The position numbers and the translations under genes were made by a program. Below, piece after piece: positions 1 through 10,789 of a stretch of 10,789 nt of DNA. How positions within the stretch are numbered: the first letter of the stretch is position 1; each line of letters begins with the position of its first letter. The notes beneath the pieces were generated by a model, which did no database searches, was not told the origin of the DNA, and worked only from the letters and a program-made list of their open reading frames with translations. The DNA comes from a virus (taxonomy: Duplodnaviria > Heunggongvirae > Uroviricota > Caudoviricetes). Where the stretch lies: positions 1 through 10,789 of IMG/VR virus record IMGVR_UViG_2917849834_000008; one strand, given 5' to 3'.

Positions 1-1056
1 TCCAACACCGCACAGAGCCATAACGGCGACCTGTACGTCGATGAGATTTTCTGGATCCCGAATTTTCAGGTACTGCGTAAAGTGGCATCAGGTATGGCCT
101 CACAGAGTCACCTGCGCTCGACCTATTTCTCCACCCCGTCCACGCTGGCGCACGACGCCTACCCGTTCTGGTCGGGTGAACTGTTTAACCGGGGACGCGC
201 CAGCGCCGCCGAACGCGTGGAAATCGACGTCAGTCATAACGCCCTTGCCGGTGGGCTTCTCTGTGCGGACGGCCAGTGGCGGCAGATTGTCACCATTGAG
301 GACGCCCTGAAAGGTGGCTGCACACTGTTCGACATTGAGCAGCTCAAACGCGAAAACAGCGCCGACGATTTTAAAAACCTGTTCATGTGTGAATTTGTTG
401 ACGACAAGGCGTCGGTGTTCCCGTTCGAGGAGCTGCAACGCTGCATGGTCGACACGCTGGAAGAATGGGAAGACTATGCGCCGTTTGCCGCGAATCCGTT
501 CGGCTCCCGTCCGGTATGGATTGGTTACGACCCGTCACACCGTGGCGACAGTGCCGGATGCGTGGTGCTGGCACCGCCGGTGGTGGCCGGTGGCAAATTC
601 AGAATACTTGAGCGTCACCAGTGGAAAGGCATGGACTTTGCCACCCAGGCGGAATCCATCCGCAAACTCACCGAAAAATATAACGTCGAATACATCGGTA
701 TTGATGCCACCGGCCTCGGTGTCGGCGTGTTCCAGCTCGTGCGCTCGTTCTATCCCGCCGCGCGCGATATCCGCTACACGCCGGAAATGAAAACCGCAAT
801 GGTGCTCAAGGCAAAAGACGTTATCCGTCGTGGCTGTCTGGAATATGACGTCAGCGCCACCGACATCACCAGCTCGTTCATGGCTATCCGCAAGACCATG
901 ACCAGCAGCGGACGCAGCGCCACCTATGAAGCCAGCCGCAGCGAGGAAGCCAGCCACGCCGACCTCGCCTGGGCGACCATGCACGCCCTGTTAAATGAGC
1001 CACTCACCGCCGGTATCAGCACTCCGCTGACATCCACCATTCTGGAGTTTTACTGA
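1..1056 (+). CDS. P: Terminase large (ATPase) subunit, P2 gpP-like; 3' portion only, 5' end lies upstream of the window
   Basis: Frame 1 is open from position 1 with no stop and runs into ORF 82..1056 (the GTG at 82 is not the real start). Stop TGA 1054-1056 overlaps the Q start (TGATG). The order P -> Q -> cos matches the P2 left end. Family assigned from recalled similarity to P2 gpP, not from a search. Confidence 0.8.
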   Translation, partial: SNTAQSHNGDLYVDEIFWIPNFQVLRKVASGMASQSHLRSTYFSTPSTLAHDAYPFWSGELFNRGRASAAERVEIDVSHNALAGGLLCADGQWRQIVTIEDALKGGCTLFDIEQLKRENSADDFKNLFMCEFVDDKASVFPFEELQRCMVDTLEEWEDYAPFAANPFGSRPVWIGYDPSHRGDSAGCVVLAPPVVAGGKFRILERHQWKGMDFATQAESIRKLTEKYNVEYIGIDATGLGVGVFQLVRSFYPAARDIRYTPEMKTAMVLKAKDVIRRGCLEYDVSATDITSSFMAIRKTMTSSGRSATYEASRSEEASHADLAWATMHALLNEPLTAGISTPLTSTILEFY

Positions 1057-2090
1057 TGAGCAAGAAAAAAGGGAAAACACCGCAACCTGCGACAAAAACA
1101 ATGACCGCCAGCGCCCCGAAAATGGAGGCATTCACCTTTGGTGAGCCGGTGCCGGTACTCGACCGCCGTGACATTCTGGATTACGTCGAGTGCATCAGTA
1201 ACGGCAGATGGTATGAGCCACCGGTCAGCTTTACCGGTCTGGCAAAAAGCCTGCGTGCTGCCGTGCATCACAGCTCACCGATTTACGTCAAACGCAATAT
1301 TCTGGCTTCAACGTTTATCCCGCACCCGTGGCTTTCCCAGCAGGATTTCAGCCGCTTTGTGCTGGATTTTCTGGTGTTCGGTAATGCGTTTCTGGAAAAG
1401 CGTTACAGCACCACCGGTAAGGTCATCAGACTGGAAACCTCACCGGCAAAATATACCCGCCGTGGTGTGGAAGAGGATGTTTACTGGTGGGTGCCGTCCT
1501 TCAACGAGCCGACAGCCTTCGCGCCCGGCTCCGTGTTTCACCTGCTGGAGCCGGATATTAATCAGGAGCTGTACGGCCTGCCGGAATATCTCAGCGCCCT
1601 TAACTCTGCCTGGCTGAATGAGTCGGCCACGTTGTTCCGCCGAAAGTATTACGAAAACGGCGCTCATGCCGGATATATCATGTATATCACCGACGCATTG
1701 CAGGATCGCGATTACATTGATTCACTTCGCGAAAACATGGCCAGGTCGAAAGGCCGCAATAACTTTAATAATCTGTTTCTCTATGCCCCACAGGGAAAGC
1801 CAGACGGCATCAAAATTATCCCGCTCAGTGAAGTGGCGACAAAGGACGATTTTTTTAATATCAAAAAATCCAGCGCCGCTGACCTGCTGGACGCGCACCG
1901 CATCCCCTTTCAGTTGATGGGCGGCAAGCCGGAGAACGTCGGGTCGCTGGGTGATATTGAGAAAGTGGCTAAGGTCTTTGTCCGCAATGAGCTTATCCCG
2001 TTACAGGACAGGATTCGCGAGATAAATGGTTGGCTCGGTCAGGAGGTCATCCGCTTTAAAAACTACTCACTGGACACTGACAACGGCTGA
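1056..2090 (+). CDS. Q: Portal (capsid vertex) protein, P2 gpQ-like
   Basis: 344 aa ORF, the size I recall for P2 gpQ. Start ATG overlaps the P stop by 1 nt. Followed by a strong terminator and, about 170 bp downstream, the cos site, as in P2. Typical high-GC enterobacterial coding composition. Confidence 0.85.
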   Translation: MSKKKGKTPQPATKTMTASAPKMEAFTFGEPVPVLDRRDILDYVECISNGRWYEPPVSFTGLAKSLRAAVHHSSPIYVKRNILASTFIPHPWLSQQDFSRFVLDFLVFGNAFLEKRYSTTGKVIRLETSPAKYTRRGVEEDVYWWVPSFNEPTAFAPGSVFHLLEPDINQELYGLPEYLSALNSAWLNESATLFRRKYYENGAHAGYIMYITDALQDRDYIDSLRENMARSKGRNNFNNLFLYAPQGKPDGIKIIPLSEVATKDDFFNIKKSSAADLLDAHRIPFQLMGGKPENVGSLGDIEKVAKVFVRNELIPLQDRIREINGWLGQEVIRFKNYSLDTDNG

Positions 2091-2095
2091 ACATC

Positions 2096-2117
2096 GCCGC
2101 CTGCGGGCGGCTTTTTT
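2096..2117 (+). terminator. Rho-independent terminator downstream of Q
   Basis: Perfect 6-bp GC stem gccgcc (2096-2101) / ggcggc (2106-2111) with 4-nt loop tgcg, followed immediately by TTTTTT (2112-2117), 6 nt after the Q stop codon. Confidence 0.7.
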
Positions 2118-2259
2118 ACACCCCGCCATCACGCCCTCACACGCTCACCACAGCACAAAACAGCCCGCAGACACACCAACGCCCCGGCGAACAATCTAAA
2201 CGCCATCACGACGTGCTCAGACGCTGAAAAAATAAAATCAGCACCACCGCCAGCGCGCA

Positions 2260-2278
2260 GTGCTTTCCCCGCCTCGCC
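2260..2278. other. cos: Phage cohesive-end site (cos), P2-type 19-nt sequence, present in joined form
   Basis: gtgctttccccgcctcgcc at 2260-2278 is the exact reverse complement of GGCGAGGCGGGGAAAGCAC, which I recall as the 19-nt P2 cohesive end. It sits between the Q 3' end and the old/tin-equivalent region, as expected for a prophage or circular form. Confidence 0.6.
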
Positions 2279-2565
2279 CGCCCGCTTCGTGAGGCGGTTT
2301 TAATGCACTTGCATGAATGGCCTAAAGTACGCCAGTTCTGACACTGCAAAGTTAGAAAATGCCTGACAGGCACATGCAAAATGATGCATCAAATGAATTC
2401 ATACTGAAATAACCCCCCAACCACATAGCTAAGCATCCACATCTTTACATCTAACTCACTAAATTCTCTTGAATAAATCAAAAAGTTAGGTTAGATCTCT
2501 GTCGTTGAGGAAGGCAACCTCGAACACTTAAGGCTAAATATAAAAAGAATAAAAAGAGGGATAAA

Positions 2566-2853
2566 ATGAAATTAAAACTCAAAAACGTAACAAGCTATCA
2601 TAAAGAATATTTTACTGAGTTAGATTTATCCAAAAAAATAAACATATTGTATGGACAAAATGGTTGTGGAAAATCTACCATATCAAATTATTTTTACAAT
2701 CCTAAAGACACCGCCTATAAGGAATGTGTATGCGAACCCATCGATAATTATCGAACTCTAGTCTACAACTCAAAATATATAGAAGATAATTTTTATAATG
2801 CAAAAGAGCAAAAAGGTATATTTACCCTCAGTCAAAAAAAATGCAGAAATTGA
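2566..2853 (+). CDS. N-terminal fragment (Walker A / P-loop) of an AAA_13-like ABC/SMC-type ATPase, RloC-like; frame broken at an A8 tract
   Basis: Good SD (aagaggg, 2554-2560) 5 nt before ATG 2566. Translation contains the P-loop GQNGCGKST. Only 95 aa, then stop at 2851-2853; the downstream ORF in the -1 frame carries the rest of the ATPase motifs. Very AT-rich, unlike the flanking phage genes. Confidence 0.6.
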   Translation: MKLKLKNVTSYHKEYFTELDLSKKINILYGQNGCGKSTISNYFYNPKDTAYKECVCEPIDNYRTLVYNSKYIEDNFYNAKEQKGIFTLSQKKCRN

Positions 2854-4775
2854 AAAAAATACTATCTGAAAAAGAAGAGCTAAACAAATCACTAGCACAT
2901 CAGCATAAAGAAAAAAAAGAATTTATCGAAAAACTTCATGAAGCGAAAAACAAAAAAGAGCAAGAGTGCATAAATTCCATATGGAATAAGACCAAAGACA
3001 TAAGAAGTTCAGAATTAAAACAATTAATGAAAGGTCAAATAGGAAGCAAAGCCACTTTCTATTACCATCTAAAAAAGTATACTCCACAAACTGATATTGA
3101 TATAAAATCATTAATACAATCTTATAGCAAACTTCTCGAGTTTAAAGGAAAAGAAATACCTCTGATAACTCCTTATAAAGGATATGTTTTATCTGAAGAA
3201 ACTCAAAAAACATTATCCACACCAATTATTGACTCTAGCAACAGCTATTTATCTGAAGCAATAAAAGAGCTACAAAATATTGATTGGATTAAACAAGGCA
3301 AAGAGCAATATTTAAATGGAGAAATTTGTCCATTTTGCCAAAGGGACACAATAGATGATAATTTTATTAAAGCCATTGAATCTATCTTTGATGAAACATA
3401 CTCAAGAAAAGTAGATCAAATACAACAAATAAAACTATCTTATGATAATGCCATTAAAAATCATCATGAAGAAATAAAGAGTAACATTTTATCATGTGAG
3501 GTGATAAACCAAGACGAAAAAGATAAAAGTCTTTCATATGTTAAGGCGTTAGAAACTATTGCAGAAAAAAACATTAAATTATTGGATAATAAAATAGAAA
3601 ATCCATCTATAAGCATTGTGCTGGAGTTTGAAAAGTCGATAGAGGAAAAACTATTAGAAGATATAGAACAATACAACAATAAAATTAACGAGTTCAATGA
3701 CAAAGTAAAAAGATTTAATAATAGCGAAATAGATATTCGCGAAAAGATGTGGGCAGCAATCAGAGACTTATGTAGCGCGGAATTTGAAATACTATCAGAC
3801 TGCGAAAGAAACTTTCAAGAAAAATATGAAAACGCTGCATCCTTCATGCAGGAAATAAAAAGAAAAGAAGAGATCAACACAAATGAAATCAATGAACTAA
3901 GAAATAAAACATCAAGTGTAGATGCAACAATAGATGCAATAAACTCACGACTTAAATTTCTTGGCATCTCTGGTTTTAGCATTGATAAACACGCCGAACT
4001 CAAAGATAAGTATATAATATCCCGCGATGGAAACAATAGAAAACAAGATGTATATCGGTCATTAAGCGAAGGTGAAAAAACATTAATAACGTTTCTATAT
4101 TTTTTAGAATGTTGCAAGGGTAAAACAAATGAAAATGATAATGATATGCGTGATAAACTCATAGTTATAGATGATCCTATATCAAGTCTATCTCAAAACT
4201 ATGTTTTCGACATAGCATCCATGATCCATCATGACATAATTGAAAAAGGCATTTCATCAAAAATAATAATCCTCACCCATAATCTTTATTTCTTCCATGA
4301 GTTAATAAAACTCGCCTCTAAAAAAGGAATAAACTTTAAACGGGACTACTTTCTTGGCAGAATAAACAAAAATGAATTTAGCACCATTAGTGCTATAGAT
4401 AAAAAAAGTGTGCAAAATGAATACCAATCCCTTTGGCAAGTATTAAAAGATGCAAAAGAGAAAAAAATCAACAAAATAATAATCCCAAATATTATGAGAA
4501 ATATACTTGAGTATTACTTTGCATTTGTTCATAGAACTGACGCATTAGAGGAAAAGCTTACTGAATTAACAAATGATGAAAATAACAGCCATTTCCGTGC
4601 CTTTTACAGATATATAAACAGAGGCTCTCACTCCGACGCAATAAATATAACAGACATGGGCGATATTGAACCTGAGAAATACTTAGAACTCTTGCACAAA
4701 ATATTCAGAATGACTGGTGATGAGAAACATTACTTAACAATGATGGGTGAAGAAGAGGTAAATGTTACCGCTTAG
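2841..4775 (+). CDS. Main part of RloC-like AAA_13 ATPase: coiled coil with CxxC zinc hook, ABC signature-like and Walker B motifs, C-terminal putative anticodon-nuclease-like domain
   Basis: 644 aa ORF. Lys/Glu-rich predicted coiled-coil region (aa ~1-400) with CPFC at aa 163-166 (nt 3327-3338). LSEGEK (aa 408-413), DKLIVIDDP (aa 438-446) and ILTHN (aa 477-481) match ABC-type signature / Walker B / H-loop. C-terminal ~150 aa contain MRNILEYYFAFVHR...SHFRAFYRY. This frame is open from 2799 and overlaps the upstream ORF across the A8 tract 2834-2841. Confidence 0.7.
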   Translation: MQKLKKILSEKEELNKSLAHQHKEKKEFIEKLHEAKNKKEQECINSIWNKTKDIRSSELKQLMKGQIGSKATFYYHLKKYTPQTDIDIKSLIQSYSKLLEFKGKEIPLITPYKGYVLSEETQKTLSTPIIDSSNSYLSEAIKELQNIDWIKQGKEQYLNGEICPFCQRDTIDDNFIKAIESIFDETYSRKVDQIQQIKLSYDNAIKNHHEEIKSNILSCEVINQDEKDKSLSYVKALETIAEKNIKLLDNKIENPSISIVLEFEKSIEEKLLEDIEQYNNKINEFNDKVKRFNNSEIDIREKMWAAIRDLCSAEFEILSDCERNFQEKYENAASFMQEIKRKEEINTNEINELRNKTSSVDATIDAINSRLKFLGISGFSIDKHAELKDKYIISRDGNNRKQDVYRSLSEGEKTLITFLYFLECCKGKTNENDNDMRDKLIVIDDPISSLSQNYVFDIASMIHHDIIEKGISSKIIILTHNLYFFHELIKLASKKGINFKRDYFLGRINKNEFSTISAIDKKSVQNEYQSLWQVLKDAKEKKINKIIIPNIMRNILEYYFAFVHRTDALEEKLTELTNDENNSHFRAFYRYINRGSHSDAINITDMGDIEPEKYLELLHKIFRMTGDEKHYLTMMGEEEVNVTA

Positions 4776-5002
4776 GCCGCATATTACCGATTCGGGTAAG
4801 AACGACGGTGCTTACGCACCGTCTCCCAGCGCCCAAAGCGGTAGCGGTTGTACTGTCGTACATTCACTAACCTTAACATGAGATTATCTCCATGCCGGCA
4901 CCATTGTTGCCAATGGCAGCCTTTATACCCTTTGTATAAAGCTAATACTAAGAGCATTGCTAGGTAGATTTCCCAAGCGGTAACGTGGGTATTCTAAGAC
5001 AA

Positions 5003-7291
5003 TTACTTAAAAAGATCAAAGCCACTAAAAAACTGCTTCCACTCACCACTTATTGGATATATAAACTTTCGTCCGTCAAACTTTACCGTCGCGCCACGCG
5101 CCAGCGCCTCAAGCTCCCATCGCTGCGGCCTGATACCGTTCTGAGCAAGGTCAACGCGGATACGGGTAATTTGCATTCTTTCCGACCGGGTCAGTCTGGC
5201 CGATGGTGCAATTTCATGTGGTTTTAACGGGCTTCCGTTTCTTTGCTGACGGTTTGGCGTTCTCAGGTCGTGTTTTAATGCGCCCCTGAGCGCCCTCACG
5301 ACCTCCGGTTCACTCCATTCAATAACACCGTCATCAACCAGATTAAGCACTGCTGCGGCGTGCTCAGAAGGTGTGGGAGCCGATAACGAAGTATTACCGC
5401 CGGTGAGCTTTCCACAGTTATTGACAGGACTCCGAGGCGCGGCGATGCCGCTTTTTAAAGTCAAAGGCTCAACGACCGGAACTTTCGGCACAATGCGCCA
5501 GTCCGTCGTTCTGGTGATATGAATATGACGCGCGCCGAGATGCGGCGCGTAAATGCCGACCACTCTCTCGACTTCTTCCTCGTACTCGTTAACGTCATCC
5601 GACGTGCTACGGGCAACCCTGACAGTCTGACAATCGCGCGGGACATTTGCCCCGCCCTGCGCGCTGATATACAACGCAAAATCACCACTGTCTGCGGCGG
5701 CGCGTGCAGCCTCGACGCGTTCGTCAAACTCATCAGCAATGCTGACGCCGCGAGGCAATTTGCGTAGTTCACGGTAAGCCCCCATTGTCGGCAGACCAAC
5801 CGTTTTAAATTGCGGAATGCGCCACGTTGACGCCCATGCGGTAACAGCCGCAGCAGTATCTTTCAGCGGCCTGCCGGTATCGTTATCGAGCTGACCATCC
5901 AGTGCATAGCCATCGATGTTTTTTGAGATGTATTTCGCGATATATCCCGCAGCACCGCCCCGGTTAAGGTGTTTTGCCTGAAAACGGTTTCGCGCGGCTC
6001 CTCTTTCGTCGCCATCCTCTTTGAGCGCATAGCGACGCATGATTTCGATAATCTGGTTACGCTGGCGTGGATTACAAAAAAGCATCATATGCCAGTGCGG
6101 CGTTCCGTCGTGGTGTGGCTCGACGACACGCAAACCGTAGACCTGTAAATCATTATCCTTGAATGCCGTGCGCATCAGGCTCCAGATATGGCAGAGATAA
6201 CGCTGCGCATCCTTTGGATTAAATGCCTCATCGTTCCAGCCGTGATTTAGCTGGACGGTTTTACTTTCGCCTTTTCCGACCTGACGTGTCGGGTGATACT
6301 TTGACGGCGTGGTCAGCGTGATAAACATCCCCACATCACCCTCTGCGGCGGCGTAACGCTCAATACCGGCAATGGTGTTCATCAGCTCCATCCGGCGAAT
6401 TTCAGGATTAGAAATACTGCCCATCACCTTACTGATAAGGTCGATGCGCTCGCCGGTTTCCCTGTTTTCAAGGTCACACGATTTAAGAAATTCCAGATTT
6501 GCCTGGCGGCGCGCACGCACATCACGAATGGCGTGTTTACTGGCATAAGGAGAACGGTCTTTATTGACCTCCCCGACAGCTATCAGTAACGCTTCATGCC
6601 AGCGCATACGCTGGCCTTTAAGCTGATGAGTCCACCACTCATCGTTAAACAGACGGGCAATTGCAGAATATGCCTGCCTCGTGGTCATCTGTCCTTTACG
6701 GTATTTTTTCCAGTAGAGAGGGGAAATATTGAAAGCACGTGCAGCGCCAGCAACATGACCATAGAGGTGAGCCTGCGCCTCATCCGTAAACAGCGATTCT
6801 TTTTCGCCATGCGCATCCCCCCAGGCATCGCTGAGTTCCTCATACATCATGAAAAGCTGCGATGAGATACGGGCAGCAAACTTTTTCAGCTCCTTGTCAT
6901 TCATTCCCGGCAGGCGCGCATAGTGGTCACGCTCTGCCAGAAACAGTAACGACGCGTCGGTGTTCATTTCATGGCGCTGATTCACACGCTCAATGCGCGG
7001 CCATAAACGACGCTGAAAAGTGGATGTGAGGAAATAAAACCCGTGCACCGGGCTTTTATTGCGCCGGATGTAGTCATAGCGTGAAGTAAACAGCGAACGC
7101 AAAAAGTAAGGCAGGCGGTTAATCGTGGATAAAACACCTTGCACCTGACGCATCTCGTCACGTGTAAGGGGTCTTTCGCGCCCGACGGCCTCGCGTGGCG
7201 CGTTCCATGCATAAGCACCGGTAAACGTCTTACCGGTGCCTGCGGCAAATGCTGACGGAGGGACAAAACGCCCGGAGGCTTTAACGGCCAT
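5003..7291 (-). CDS. A: Replication initiation protein, P2 gpA-like rolling-circle initiator
   Basis: Large minus-strand ORF (track 5003..7333, 776 aa with a TTG start at 7333). The first ATG at 7289-7291 starts MAVKASGRF, which I recall as the P2 gpA N-terminus, and gives ~762 aa. Contains the HxH-like segment PHHDGTPHWHMMLF. Located between the cargo and the B/cox region as in P2. Confidence 0.85.
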   Translation of the reverse strand: MAVKASGRFVPPSAFAAGTGKTFTGAYAWNAPREAVGRERPLTRDEMRQVQGVLSTINRLPYFLRSLFTSRYDYIRRNKSPVHGFYFLTSTFQRRLWPRIERVNQRHEMNTDASLLFLAERDHYARLPGMNDKELKKFAARISSQLFMMYEELSDAWGDAHGEKESLFTDEAQAHLYGHVAGAARAFNISPLYWKKYRKGQMTTRQAYSAIARLFNDEWWTHQLKGQRMRWHEALLIAVGEVNKDRSPYASKHAIRDVRARRQANLEFLKSCDLENRETGERIDLISKVMGSISNPEIRRMELMNTIAGIERYAAAEGDVGMFITLTTPSKYHPTRQVGKGESKTVQLNHGWNDEAFNPKDAQRYLCHIWSLMRTAFKDNDLQVYGLRVVEPHHDGTPHWHMMLFCNPRQRNQIIEIMRRYALKEDGDERGAARNRFQAKHLNRGGAAGYIAKYISKNIDGYALDGQLDNDTGRPLKDTAAAVTAWASTWRIPQFKTVGLPTMGAYRELRKLPRGVSIADEFDERVEAARAAADSGDFALYISAQGGANVPRDCQTVRVARSTSDDVNEYEEEVERVVGIYAPHLGARHIHITRTTDWRIVPKVPVVEPLTLKSGIAAPRSPVNNCGKLTGGNTSLSAPTPSEHAAAVLNLVDDGVIEWSEPEVVRALRGALKHDLRTPNRQQRNGSPLKPHEIAPSARLTRSERMQITRIRVDLAQNGIRPQRWELEALARGATVKFDGRKFIYPISGEWKQFFSGFDLFK
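5421..5440 (-). other. ori: Putative origin of replication (gpA nick site) inside the A coding region
   Basis: ttgacaggactccgaggcgc on the + strand is the reverse complement of GCGCCTCGGAGTCCTGTCAA, which I recall as the P2 ori nick region. The P2 ori is known to lie within gene A. The match is exact but the reference sequence is from memory. Confidence 0.45.
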
Positions 7292-9808: not shown

Positions 9809-10789
9809 ATGGCAATTAAGAAGCTCGATGATGGTCGCTATGAAGTGGACATTAGACCTCGCGGTCGCGACGGAAAACGCATCCGCAGGAAATTCGAAAG
9901 AAAAGCTGAAGCACTAGCATTTGAGCGATACACAATCGCCAATGCCAGTCAGAAAGAATGGGGAGGCCAGCGAGCAGACCGCCGAACTTTGAGTGAGTTG
10001 CTGGACATCTGGTGGAAATATCACGGGCAAAACCACGAGCATGGAACAAAAGAGTTTAATCATCTACTCAAAACCATCAGCGGCATAGGTGATATACCAG
10101 TGAGCCGGATGAGCAAAAGGGCTTTGATGGATTATCGTTCCATGCGACTACGTGATGGTATCAGTGCCGCAACGATAAACCGTGACATGTACCGATTATC
10201 CGGCATGTTCACAAAATTAATTCAATTGGATGAATTTTCCGGGCAACACCCAATTCACGGACTGCCGCCACTGGCGGAGGCCAACCCTGAAATGACGTTC
10301 CTGGAAAAAGCAGAAATCGAAAAACTGTTAAATGTTTTGGCTGGTGATGACTTACTTGTCGCGCTTTTATGTCTGAGCACTGGAGGAAGATGGACGGAAG
10401 TTGCCACGCTAAAACCAGCACAGATTACAAATTGCAGGGTTACCTTCCTGAAAACCAAAAACGGTAAAAAGCGAACCGTGCCGATTTCTGAGGAACTGGA
10501 GAAAAAAGTTAAAGAGGAGGCCAGCGCCAAATTATTCAAAGTTGATTATGAGAAATTTTGCGGGATTTTACGCAGAGTGAAACCTGATATACCACCCAAT
10601 CAGGCAACCCACATCCTGCGGCATACATTCGCAAGCCATTTCATGATGAATGGGGGCAATATAATCGCACTGCAACAGATTCTGGGACATGCGAGCATTC
10701 AGCAGACGATGGCCTATGCGCACCTTGCGCCTGACTACCTGCAAAATGCCGTCGCTCTGAATCCACTAAAAGGCGGAGTGACGTTATAA
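9809..10789 (+). CDS. int: Tyrosine site-specific integrase, P2 Int-like
   Basis: ORF track gives 9779..10789 (336 aa). The ATG at 9809 (MAIKKLDDGRYEV...) is preceded by a strong SD ggaggg (9796-9801) and is the more likely start. C-terminal catalytic region has the tyrosine-recombinase pattern ...ATHILRHTFASHF...LGHASIQQTMAYAH. The stop coincides with the last base of the window, so attL/attR core should lie just beyond. Confidence 0.85.
   Translation: MAIKKLDDGRYEVDIRPRGRDGKRIRRKFERKAEALAFERYTIANASQKEWGGQRADRRTLSELLDIWWKYHGQNHEHGTKEFNHLLKTISGIGDIPVSRMSKRALMDYRSMRLRDGISAATINRDMYRLSGMFTKLIQLDEFSGQHPIHGLPPLAEANPEMTFLEKAEIEKLLNVLAGDDLLVALLCLSTGGRWTEVATLKPAQITNCRVTFLKTKNGKKRTVPISEELEKKVKEEASAKLFKVDYEKFCGILRRVKPDIPPNQATHILRHTFASHFMMNGGNIIALQQILGHASIQQTMAYAHLAPDYLQNAVALNPLKGGVTL

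Follow-up and report, generated by a model that had tools for sequence, protein, structure and literature searches.

A P2-like prophage with an RloC-type gene in its cos-proximal hotspot

The stretch of DNA analysed here (10,789 nucleotides; hereinafter the window) corresponds to positions 1-10789 of contig PDIA01000039.1 (GCA_004745155.1) from the Escherichia cryptic clade II strain E4702. Its gene content is that of a P2-like prophage, with genes for the large terminase (to 1056), the portal protein gpQ, a cargo protein, gpA, small early proteins, Cox, the C repressor and an integrase (9809-10789). The contig begins within the large terminase gene (window 1-81), and the prophage is split across contigs in the draft. 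The P2-type portal gene gpQ (1056-2090, plus strand) and the P2-type replication endonuclease gene gpA (5003-7291, minus strand) form the left and right borders of the interval described as the cos-proximal defence hotspot of P2-like phages, which in P2 itself contains old and tin (PMC9122126). The cargo gene (2566-4775, plus strand), which is AT-rich (30% G+C), occupies precisely this setting between the portal gene and gpA, near cos. Across 2090-5010, a promoter scan returned matches at chance level (13 sites versus 12.2 in shuffles), while terminator-like matches numbered 8 versus 2.0 in shuffles. Two G+C-rich hairpins followed by T runs (2094-2111 and 2282-2297), which resemble terminators, lie just 3′ of the portal gene in the cos-proximal spacer. 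The integrase of the window is widespread (29170 blocks). Prophages with an identical integrase inserted next to cpxP-cpxRA (L017-L022) carry unrelated cargo between gpQ and gpA, including GmrSD plus HEPN proteins, a cytosine methylase with two unknown ORFs, and an M78 peptidase, thus illustrating the turnover of the hotspot; one of these, L022, itself has split genes for the terminase and gpA.

As deposited, the cargo gene is read as two overlapping ORFs, both on the plus strand, instead of one uninterrupted chain. The N-terminal ORF (2566-2853; 95 aa; MKLK...GQNGCGKST...TLSQKKCRN) runs in frame 1 to the TGA at 2851-2853, and encompasses a Walker A motif (GQNGCGKST, 2653-2679), Q82 (2809-2811) and the strand FTL (2821-2829). 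Frame 3 is open from 2799, and from the ATG at 2841 to its end at 4775 it codes for a C-terminal product of 644 aa. This second ORF contains a coiled coil, a CPFCQ zinc hook (3327-3341), the ABC signature LSEGE (4062-4076), Walker B IVIDD (4161-4175), the H-loop TH (4275-4280) and the nuclease motifs RNILE (4497-4511) and RYINRGSH (4608-4631). The two ORFs overlap at a run of eight A (A8, 2834-2841), the start of the second and the stop of the first overlapping by 13 nt; two further A runs follow within the gene, namely A7 at 2853-2859 and A8 at 2911-2918. An earlier note on this DNA had given the same ORF boundaries, stop, start and run positions, and all of these are correct. When the two parts are joined, the resulting protein matches the Pfam AAA_13 profile end to end (E=7e-103; residues 16-714 against positions 9-712 of 713), indicating that the ORFs are the halves of one gene.

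Further profile searches recovered the PADLOC model PDC-S06 (E=3e-254) and, over residues 434-716, the PrrC model (E=5e-16); RefSeq relatives have the gene as one 2208-nt CDS, and in one public source the identical intact 735-aa protein is named 'wobble nucleotide-excising tRNase', that is, RloC. Searches of PDB sequences and NCBIfam yielded no match. Among 42 homologues with identities down to 25%, the ABC motifs GQNGCGKST (30-38), LSEGE (499-503), IVIDD (532-536) and TH (570-571) are retained, with invariant Walker A residues G30, N32, G33, G35, K36 and T38; D535, D536, T570, H571 and the CPFCQ motif (254-258) are equally invariant, as are R644, E648 and H688, which by analogy with PrrC (PMC3458546) are predicted to form a catalytic Arg/Glu/His triad. 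An AlphaFold2 model (mean pLDDT 81.5) displays an ABC head, long helices spanning 90-141 and 276-447, and a helical C-terminal domain; its best PDB matches in Foldseek are Rad50, SMC heads, retron-associated ATPase complexes, AriA and Lamassu complexes. In its published definition, RloC joins a PrrC-like anticodon nuclease to an ABC ATPase into which a Rad50-like coiled coil and zinc hook are inserted (PMC3458546). Judging from its motifs and layout, the cargo is a predicted single-chain RloC-type anticodon nuclease that combines a Rad50-like ABC ATPase, a putative CPFC zinc hook and a PrrC-like C-terminal nuclease. In the intact protein, the ABC ATPase head and the coiled-coil/zinc-hook insert would control the C-terminal tRNA anticodon nuclease which, once triggered, would shut down translation by way of abortive infection, as described for RloC.

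Homologues of the cargo gene are single chains

Homologues encoded as two conserved genes with the same boundary, which would have spoken for a natural division of the protein, were looked for, and single chains were found instead. Thus, homologues that share 25-64% identity consist of one chain of 725-775 aa, and the 71 protein clusters that match the repaired protein are essentially all in this size range with 99-100% query coverage, the shorter members being truncated on contigs of 1.6-3 kb. Likewise, of 23 distant genomic loci (in Pseudomonas, Paenibacillus, Bacteroidota and others), most align without interruption over nearly the whole query; six match only part of it, in some cases because the contig ends. 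Homologues from the same hotspot (58-64% identity) are single genes for 738-739 aa, with AGTAAGGAAAATGC...GAAAAAGAA at the positions equivalent to the break. As homologues are not split at this boundary, the cargo is really one gene.

Two adjacent A runs are each one base longer than in relatives

We compared the locus with its relatives at the DNA level. The segment 2400-4900 is about 99% identical in 12 complete E. coli genomes, 10 of which have the gene annotated as one intact 2208-nt CDS (735 aa); in the remaining two it is a broken pseudogene (H9/L003 and H12/L004). The window version is 2210 nt long. When the window is aligned to four relatives over 7291 nt (7.3 kb), just two indels prove unique to it, each a single additional A; they fall in the runs at 2834-2841 and 2853-2859, 19 nt apart. 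In intact relatives the junction reads AGTC-A7-TGCAGAAATTG-A6-TACT. Extending the comparison of tract lengths in related loci, which the earlier note had proposed, to 21 independent relatives (13 complete genomes, one draft, three metagenome contigs and four IMG/VR contigs), we found A7 followed by A6 in 20. The remaining one, L006 (GCA_036613095.1), has A8 followed by A6 on a different haplotype, so that the first run is A7 in 20/21 and the second A6 in 21/21; A8 followed by A7 is seen only in the window. Hence, the earlier picture of a single lesion at 2834-2841, with the A7 run at 2853-2859 taken as an in-frame bystander, gives way to a double lesion of which the A7 run is itself a part. 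Since both runs gained a base (net +2), the reading frame shifts from 1 to 2 in the first and on to 3 in the second, and removal of one A from each run restores a continuous 735-aa protein. The third run (A8, 2911-2918) has the same length in the window as in most relatives.

This comparison also revises the protein sequence across the break. The relatives give SQKNAEIEKILS as the junction peptide of the intact gene, in place of the SQKKMQKLKKILS formerly proposed; the ancestral peptide can be written ...SQKNAEIEKILSEKEEL... or ...FTLSQKNAEIEKILSEKEEL... in its context. Lengthening the first run to A9, the repair suggested in the earlier note, does close the frame, giving a continuous product of 736 aa (...SQKKMQKLKKILSEKEEL...), and fails as a restoration of the original protein. 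In an alignment of four proteins (the intact allele and three homologues at 58-64% identity), N92, A93, I95, E96 and K97 are invariant, and the A9 product replaces these five residues, with KMQKLK in their stead. The A9 repair is arithmetically valid and is not the ancestral state.

Across a collection of about 15 billion proteins, the exact 644-aa product occurs on one contig, and intact 735-aa alleles on more than 600 (185 + 252 + 147 + 31 + ...). The exact portal and gpA proteins of the window were found on the source contig only, with no independent assembly of the allele, and the repaired 735-aa window allele is absent from the collection. We also searched for the N-terminal products of eight other run-length combinations (first run A6, A7 or A9; second run A5-A8), of which only that of the A7/A7 type (100 aa, ...NAEIEKNTI) was found, once, on an ENA metagenome contig.

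Elsewhere in the window no error is visible. Among its 29 runs of at least six bases, 27 agree with relatives and two differ; those in agreement include the A8 at 2911 and five runs of seven bases, with the A7 runs at 2632, 3565, 4401 and 4461 among the concordant ones. Only about 4 of the 406 pairs of window runs are as close together as 19 nt. None of the other genes in the window is broken. A run of C at 2412-2418, in the non-coding cos-proximal region and outside any gene, varies in length among near-identical relatives. Relative to four close relatives the window has 61 private substitutions, about half of them clustered at 1632-1869 (240 nt) in the portal gene, a clustering suggestive of a patch acquired by recombination from a more distant P2-like phage. 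In L006, the spacer that separates the cargo gene from gpA contains a 14-nt insertion, CTAGGTAGATTTCC, which follows the position equivalent to window 4959.

Inactivated copies of the same gene were recovered in several relatives. These comprise a GAA-to-TAA nonsense codon in L003 (equivalent of window 2874), a loss of one A in the third run in L004 (A7; annotated 'frameshifted'), with a -1 frame change at the same run in P0026, and IS5 insertions after residues 105 and 109, the two sites being distributed among P0017, P0021 and L034/H29. P0030 is a further relative in which the same RloC-type gene is independently broken.

Sequencing background of the E4702 draft

The assembly PDIA00000000 of strain E4702 was produced by Ion Torrent only, from single-end reads of 35-400 nt at about 50x, with MIRA and SPAdes (PMC6639607); the reads of the strain have the accession SRX3260360. 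On this platform homopolymer indels lead to frameshifted assemblies, and runs of adenine suffer most (PMC12046094); run-specific high-frequency indel errors arise at about 1 per kb of reference, again giving assembly frameshifts (PMC3623719). Pseudogene counts are clearly elevated in Ion Torrent assemblies, which make up 1-3% of submissions but more than 50% of the RefSeq exclusions for 'many frameshifted proteins' (PMC7604302). As to the direction of error, flow-call errors tend to under-call long homopolymers (PMC3623719), and in one benchmark the consensus discrepancies were 77% deletions versus 11.7% insertions (PMC12046094). A literature search returned no usable number for the indel rate per 100 kb in Ion Torrent E. 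coli assemblies, and no paper for the L006 assembly (JAZJFP01).

Origin of the frame break

Of the four explanations that the earlier note had left side by side, namely a sequencing artefact, genuine inactivation, a phase switch and decoding by slippage, the former two are viable and the latter two are unsupported. We favour the artefact, with a probability of roughly 0.55 (the degrees of confidence expressed here are judgements rather than computed values): the split would have arisen in sequencing or assembly, and the organism most likely carries an intact RloC-type gene for 735 aa. The Ion Torrent draft would have called A7 as A8 at 2834-2841 and A6 as A7 at 2853-2859, and we infer that the extra bases are miscalls rather than mutations, because the platform is prone to exactly such homopolymer errors; because the changed runs are adjacent (19 nt), as fits a local base-calling problem and only rarely two independent neutral slips; because the net change of +2 restores nothing and thereby leaves a second real mutation without a selective reason; because the allele is a singleton, on one contig against more than 600 intact ones and with 20 of 21 relatives at A7/A6; and because P2 hotspots seldom contain defence genes that have become pseudogenes (PMC13586616). 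Against this stand the error direction, two over-calls in runs of 7 and 6 being less typical; the correctness of the other long runs and the wholeness of the other genes, by which the assembly is not riddled with errors locally; and the fact that the RloC-type gene is genuinely lost in other strains. These points speak for the reading that comes next in our estimate, a tentative one that we nevertheless take seriously, in which the split is a strain-private pseudogene: slippage from A7 to A8 truncated the protein after 95 aa, a later neutral slip took A6 to A7, and the nuclease is dead in the lysogen. Loss is expected for a costly or toxic abortive-infection gene, and 3 of the 13 complete-genome copies are broken (H9/L003 by the nonsense codon, H12/L004 by the frameshift in the third A run, and H29 by IS5), with the second IS5 site in P0021; this hints at a cost of carrying the RloC-type gene. 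The A8/A6 state of L006 on its different haplotype and the A7/A7-type product in the ENA contig count on the side of this reading as well, but they may be sequencing errors too. A real pseudogene also requires two independent slips to strike runs 19 nt apart while the longer A8 and five A7 runs of the same gene stayed unchanged, in a singleton allele from an Ion Torrent-only genome and in a hotspot where, as noted, such pseudogenes are rare. Were the change real, we would expect a null allele, because the RloC nuclease requires its ATPase, a Walker A lysine mutant being inactive in vivo (PMC3458546), and the 644-aa fragment has neither the Walker A motif nor a ribosome-binding site; truncation after residue 95 would then be a true null. 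We rejected the notion that selection favoured the second +1 for providing the C-terminal ORF with an ATG start, as L006 with its single insertion already has an ATG-initiated ORF of 658 aa (equivalent of 2798).

Programmed, phase-variable and functional-split readings of the break are improbable even when taken together. One of them, which we consider highly unlikely, sees the A8 as a contingency tract or recoding site, where transcriptional slippage or a -1 ribosomal frameshift on A_AAA_AAA would yield a little 736-aa nuclease and so tune a toxic effector. Formally, A_AAA_AAA in frame 1 is a slippery heptamer; an uninterrupted 736 aa does result from a -1 shift or from one more A in the mRNA, and the three A runs in the first 350 nt have length variants somewhere in the public data. 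Yet, A8/A7 is not a conserved state, as 20 of 21 relatives have A7/A6 and are in frame at the runs; diverged homologues from the same hotspot lack the A7/A6 runs altogether (AAGGAAAATG... and GAAAAAGAA); and the slippage product replaces the invariant N92, A93, I95 and E96 and inserts a residue. Stimulators are equally wanting: the 79 nt downstream of the run show no RNA structure beyond shuffles (MFE -3.9 kcal/mol, z = +0.48), and the only upstream candidate for a Shine-Dalgarno-like element is a GG about 17 nt away, in a weak AAGGT, where a spacing of about 10-14 nt is expected. For phase variation in an enterobacterium proficient in mismatch repair, tracts of 7-8 A would generally be short. 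Nor did we find tract polymorphism of a phase-variable kind among strains, the variants being singletons (one A8/A6, one A7/A7-type and the window) against more than 600 intact contigs. With the frame break and slippery run not conserved and the homologues single ORFs, a recoding site or phase switch is thus unsupported. Gene fission, to which we give the least credence, would have the 95-aa Walker A lobe and the 644-aa remainder made separately, by termination-reinitiation at ATG 2841/TGA 2851, and reassembled into a two-chain RloC in the manner of split Rad50 heads. The break does lie exactly where head strand 86-88 passes into the first coiled-coil helix (90-141), which is where the AlphaFold model is least confident within the head, and the 13-nt stop/start overlap would suit such coupling, but no split homologue is present across the 71 protein clusters and 23 distant genomic loci, and the NAEIEK junction motif, conserved in the four-protein alignment, is lost from both fragments of this singleton allele. 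Moreover, ATG 2841 has no Shine-Dalgarno sequence in TTTACCCTCAGTCAAAAAAA, whereas ATG 2566 is preceded by the Shine-Dalgarno-like AAGAGGGA. About as unlikely as tuning by slippage is a hybrid in which A8/A7 is real in E4702 and constitutes a leaky OFF allele, with occasional RNA-polymerase or ribosome slippage on the A8 run, or reassembly of the two ORF products, yielding a trickle of active nuclease; if true, the cluster of homopolymers where head meets coiled coil would serve as a rheostat, mutational or translational, for a toxic effector of abortive infection.

Discussion

We would class the frame break as not a real feature and, failing that, as an ordinary pseudogene. Each of the ingredients, from RloC-type nucleases and the P2 hotspot to homopolymer frameshifts and Ion Torrent artefacts, was already known, and what this locus adds is mainly a caution: homopolymer frame breaks in single-platform Ion Torrent drafts need read support before recoding or phase variation is claimed. 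The useful positive outcome is the annotation of this P2-hotspot cargo as an RloC-type anticodon nuclease that is intact in hundreds of Escherichia genomes. In some relatives the gene has repeatedly been knocked out, through IS5, nonsense and homopolymer changes, which is nothing unusual for genes of abortive infection.

With respect to known systems, programmed -1 frameshift and slippage sites such as those of dnaX (A_AAA_AAG) and insertion sequences (A6G/A7) share with the window a slippery A run at an ORF overlap; unlike them, the window site is not conserved and is without a stimulatory Shine-Dalgarno element or hairpin, and its in-frame ancestral allele is overwhelmingly common. Ion Torrent homopolymer artefacts resemble it in that single-base changes in A-run length give rise to false pseudogenes (PMC12046094, PMC7604302, PMC3623719); the difference is that both changes here are insertions, whereas under-calls dominate for long runs in benchmarks. 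PrrC, the T4-excluding nuclease linked to EcoprrI, is matched by the C-terminal region (434-716) and shares the ATPase-plus-nuclease logic, but it has no coiled-coil/zinc-hook insert and resides inside a type Ic R-M locus, while the window gene stands alone between gpQ and gpA. Its ABC motifs, coiled-coil insert with Cys-x-x-Cys (CPFC, 254-257) and PrrC-like C-terminus are those of RloC (Davidov and Kaufmann, 2008; Klaiman et al., 2012, PMC3458546), a likeness in layout and motifs; the window copy differs in being prophage cargo in the P2 hotspot and frame-broken in this record. PADLOC lists the gene only as the candidate PDC-S06. Its location is identical to that of old and tin in the P2 hotspot (Rousset et al., 2022, PMC9122126), and the cargo varies among prophages with the same integrase. 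In its wording, that study contains neither 'RloC' nor 'AAA_13', and brings in PrrC solely as a conceptual comparison for PARIS.
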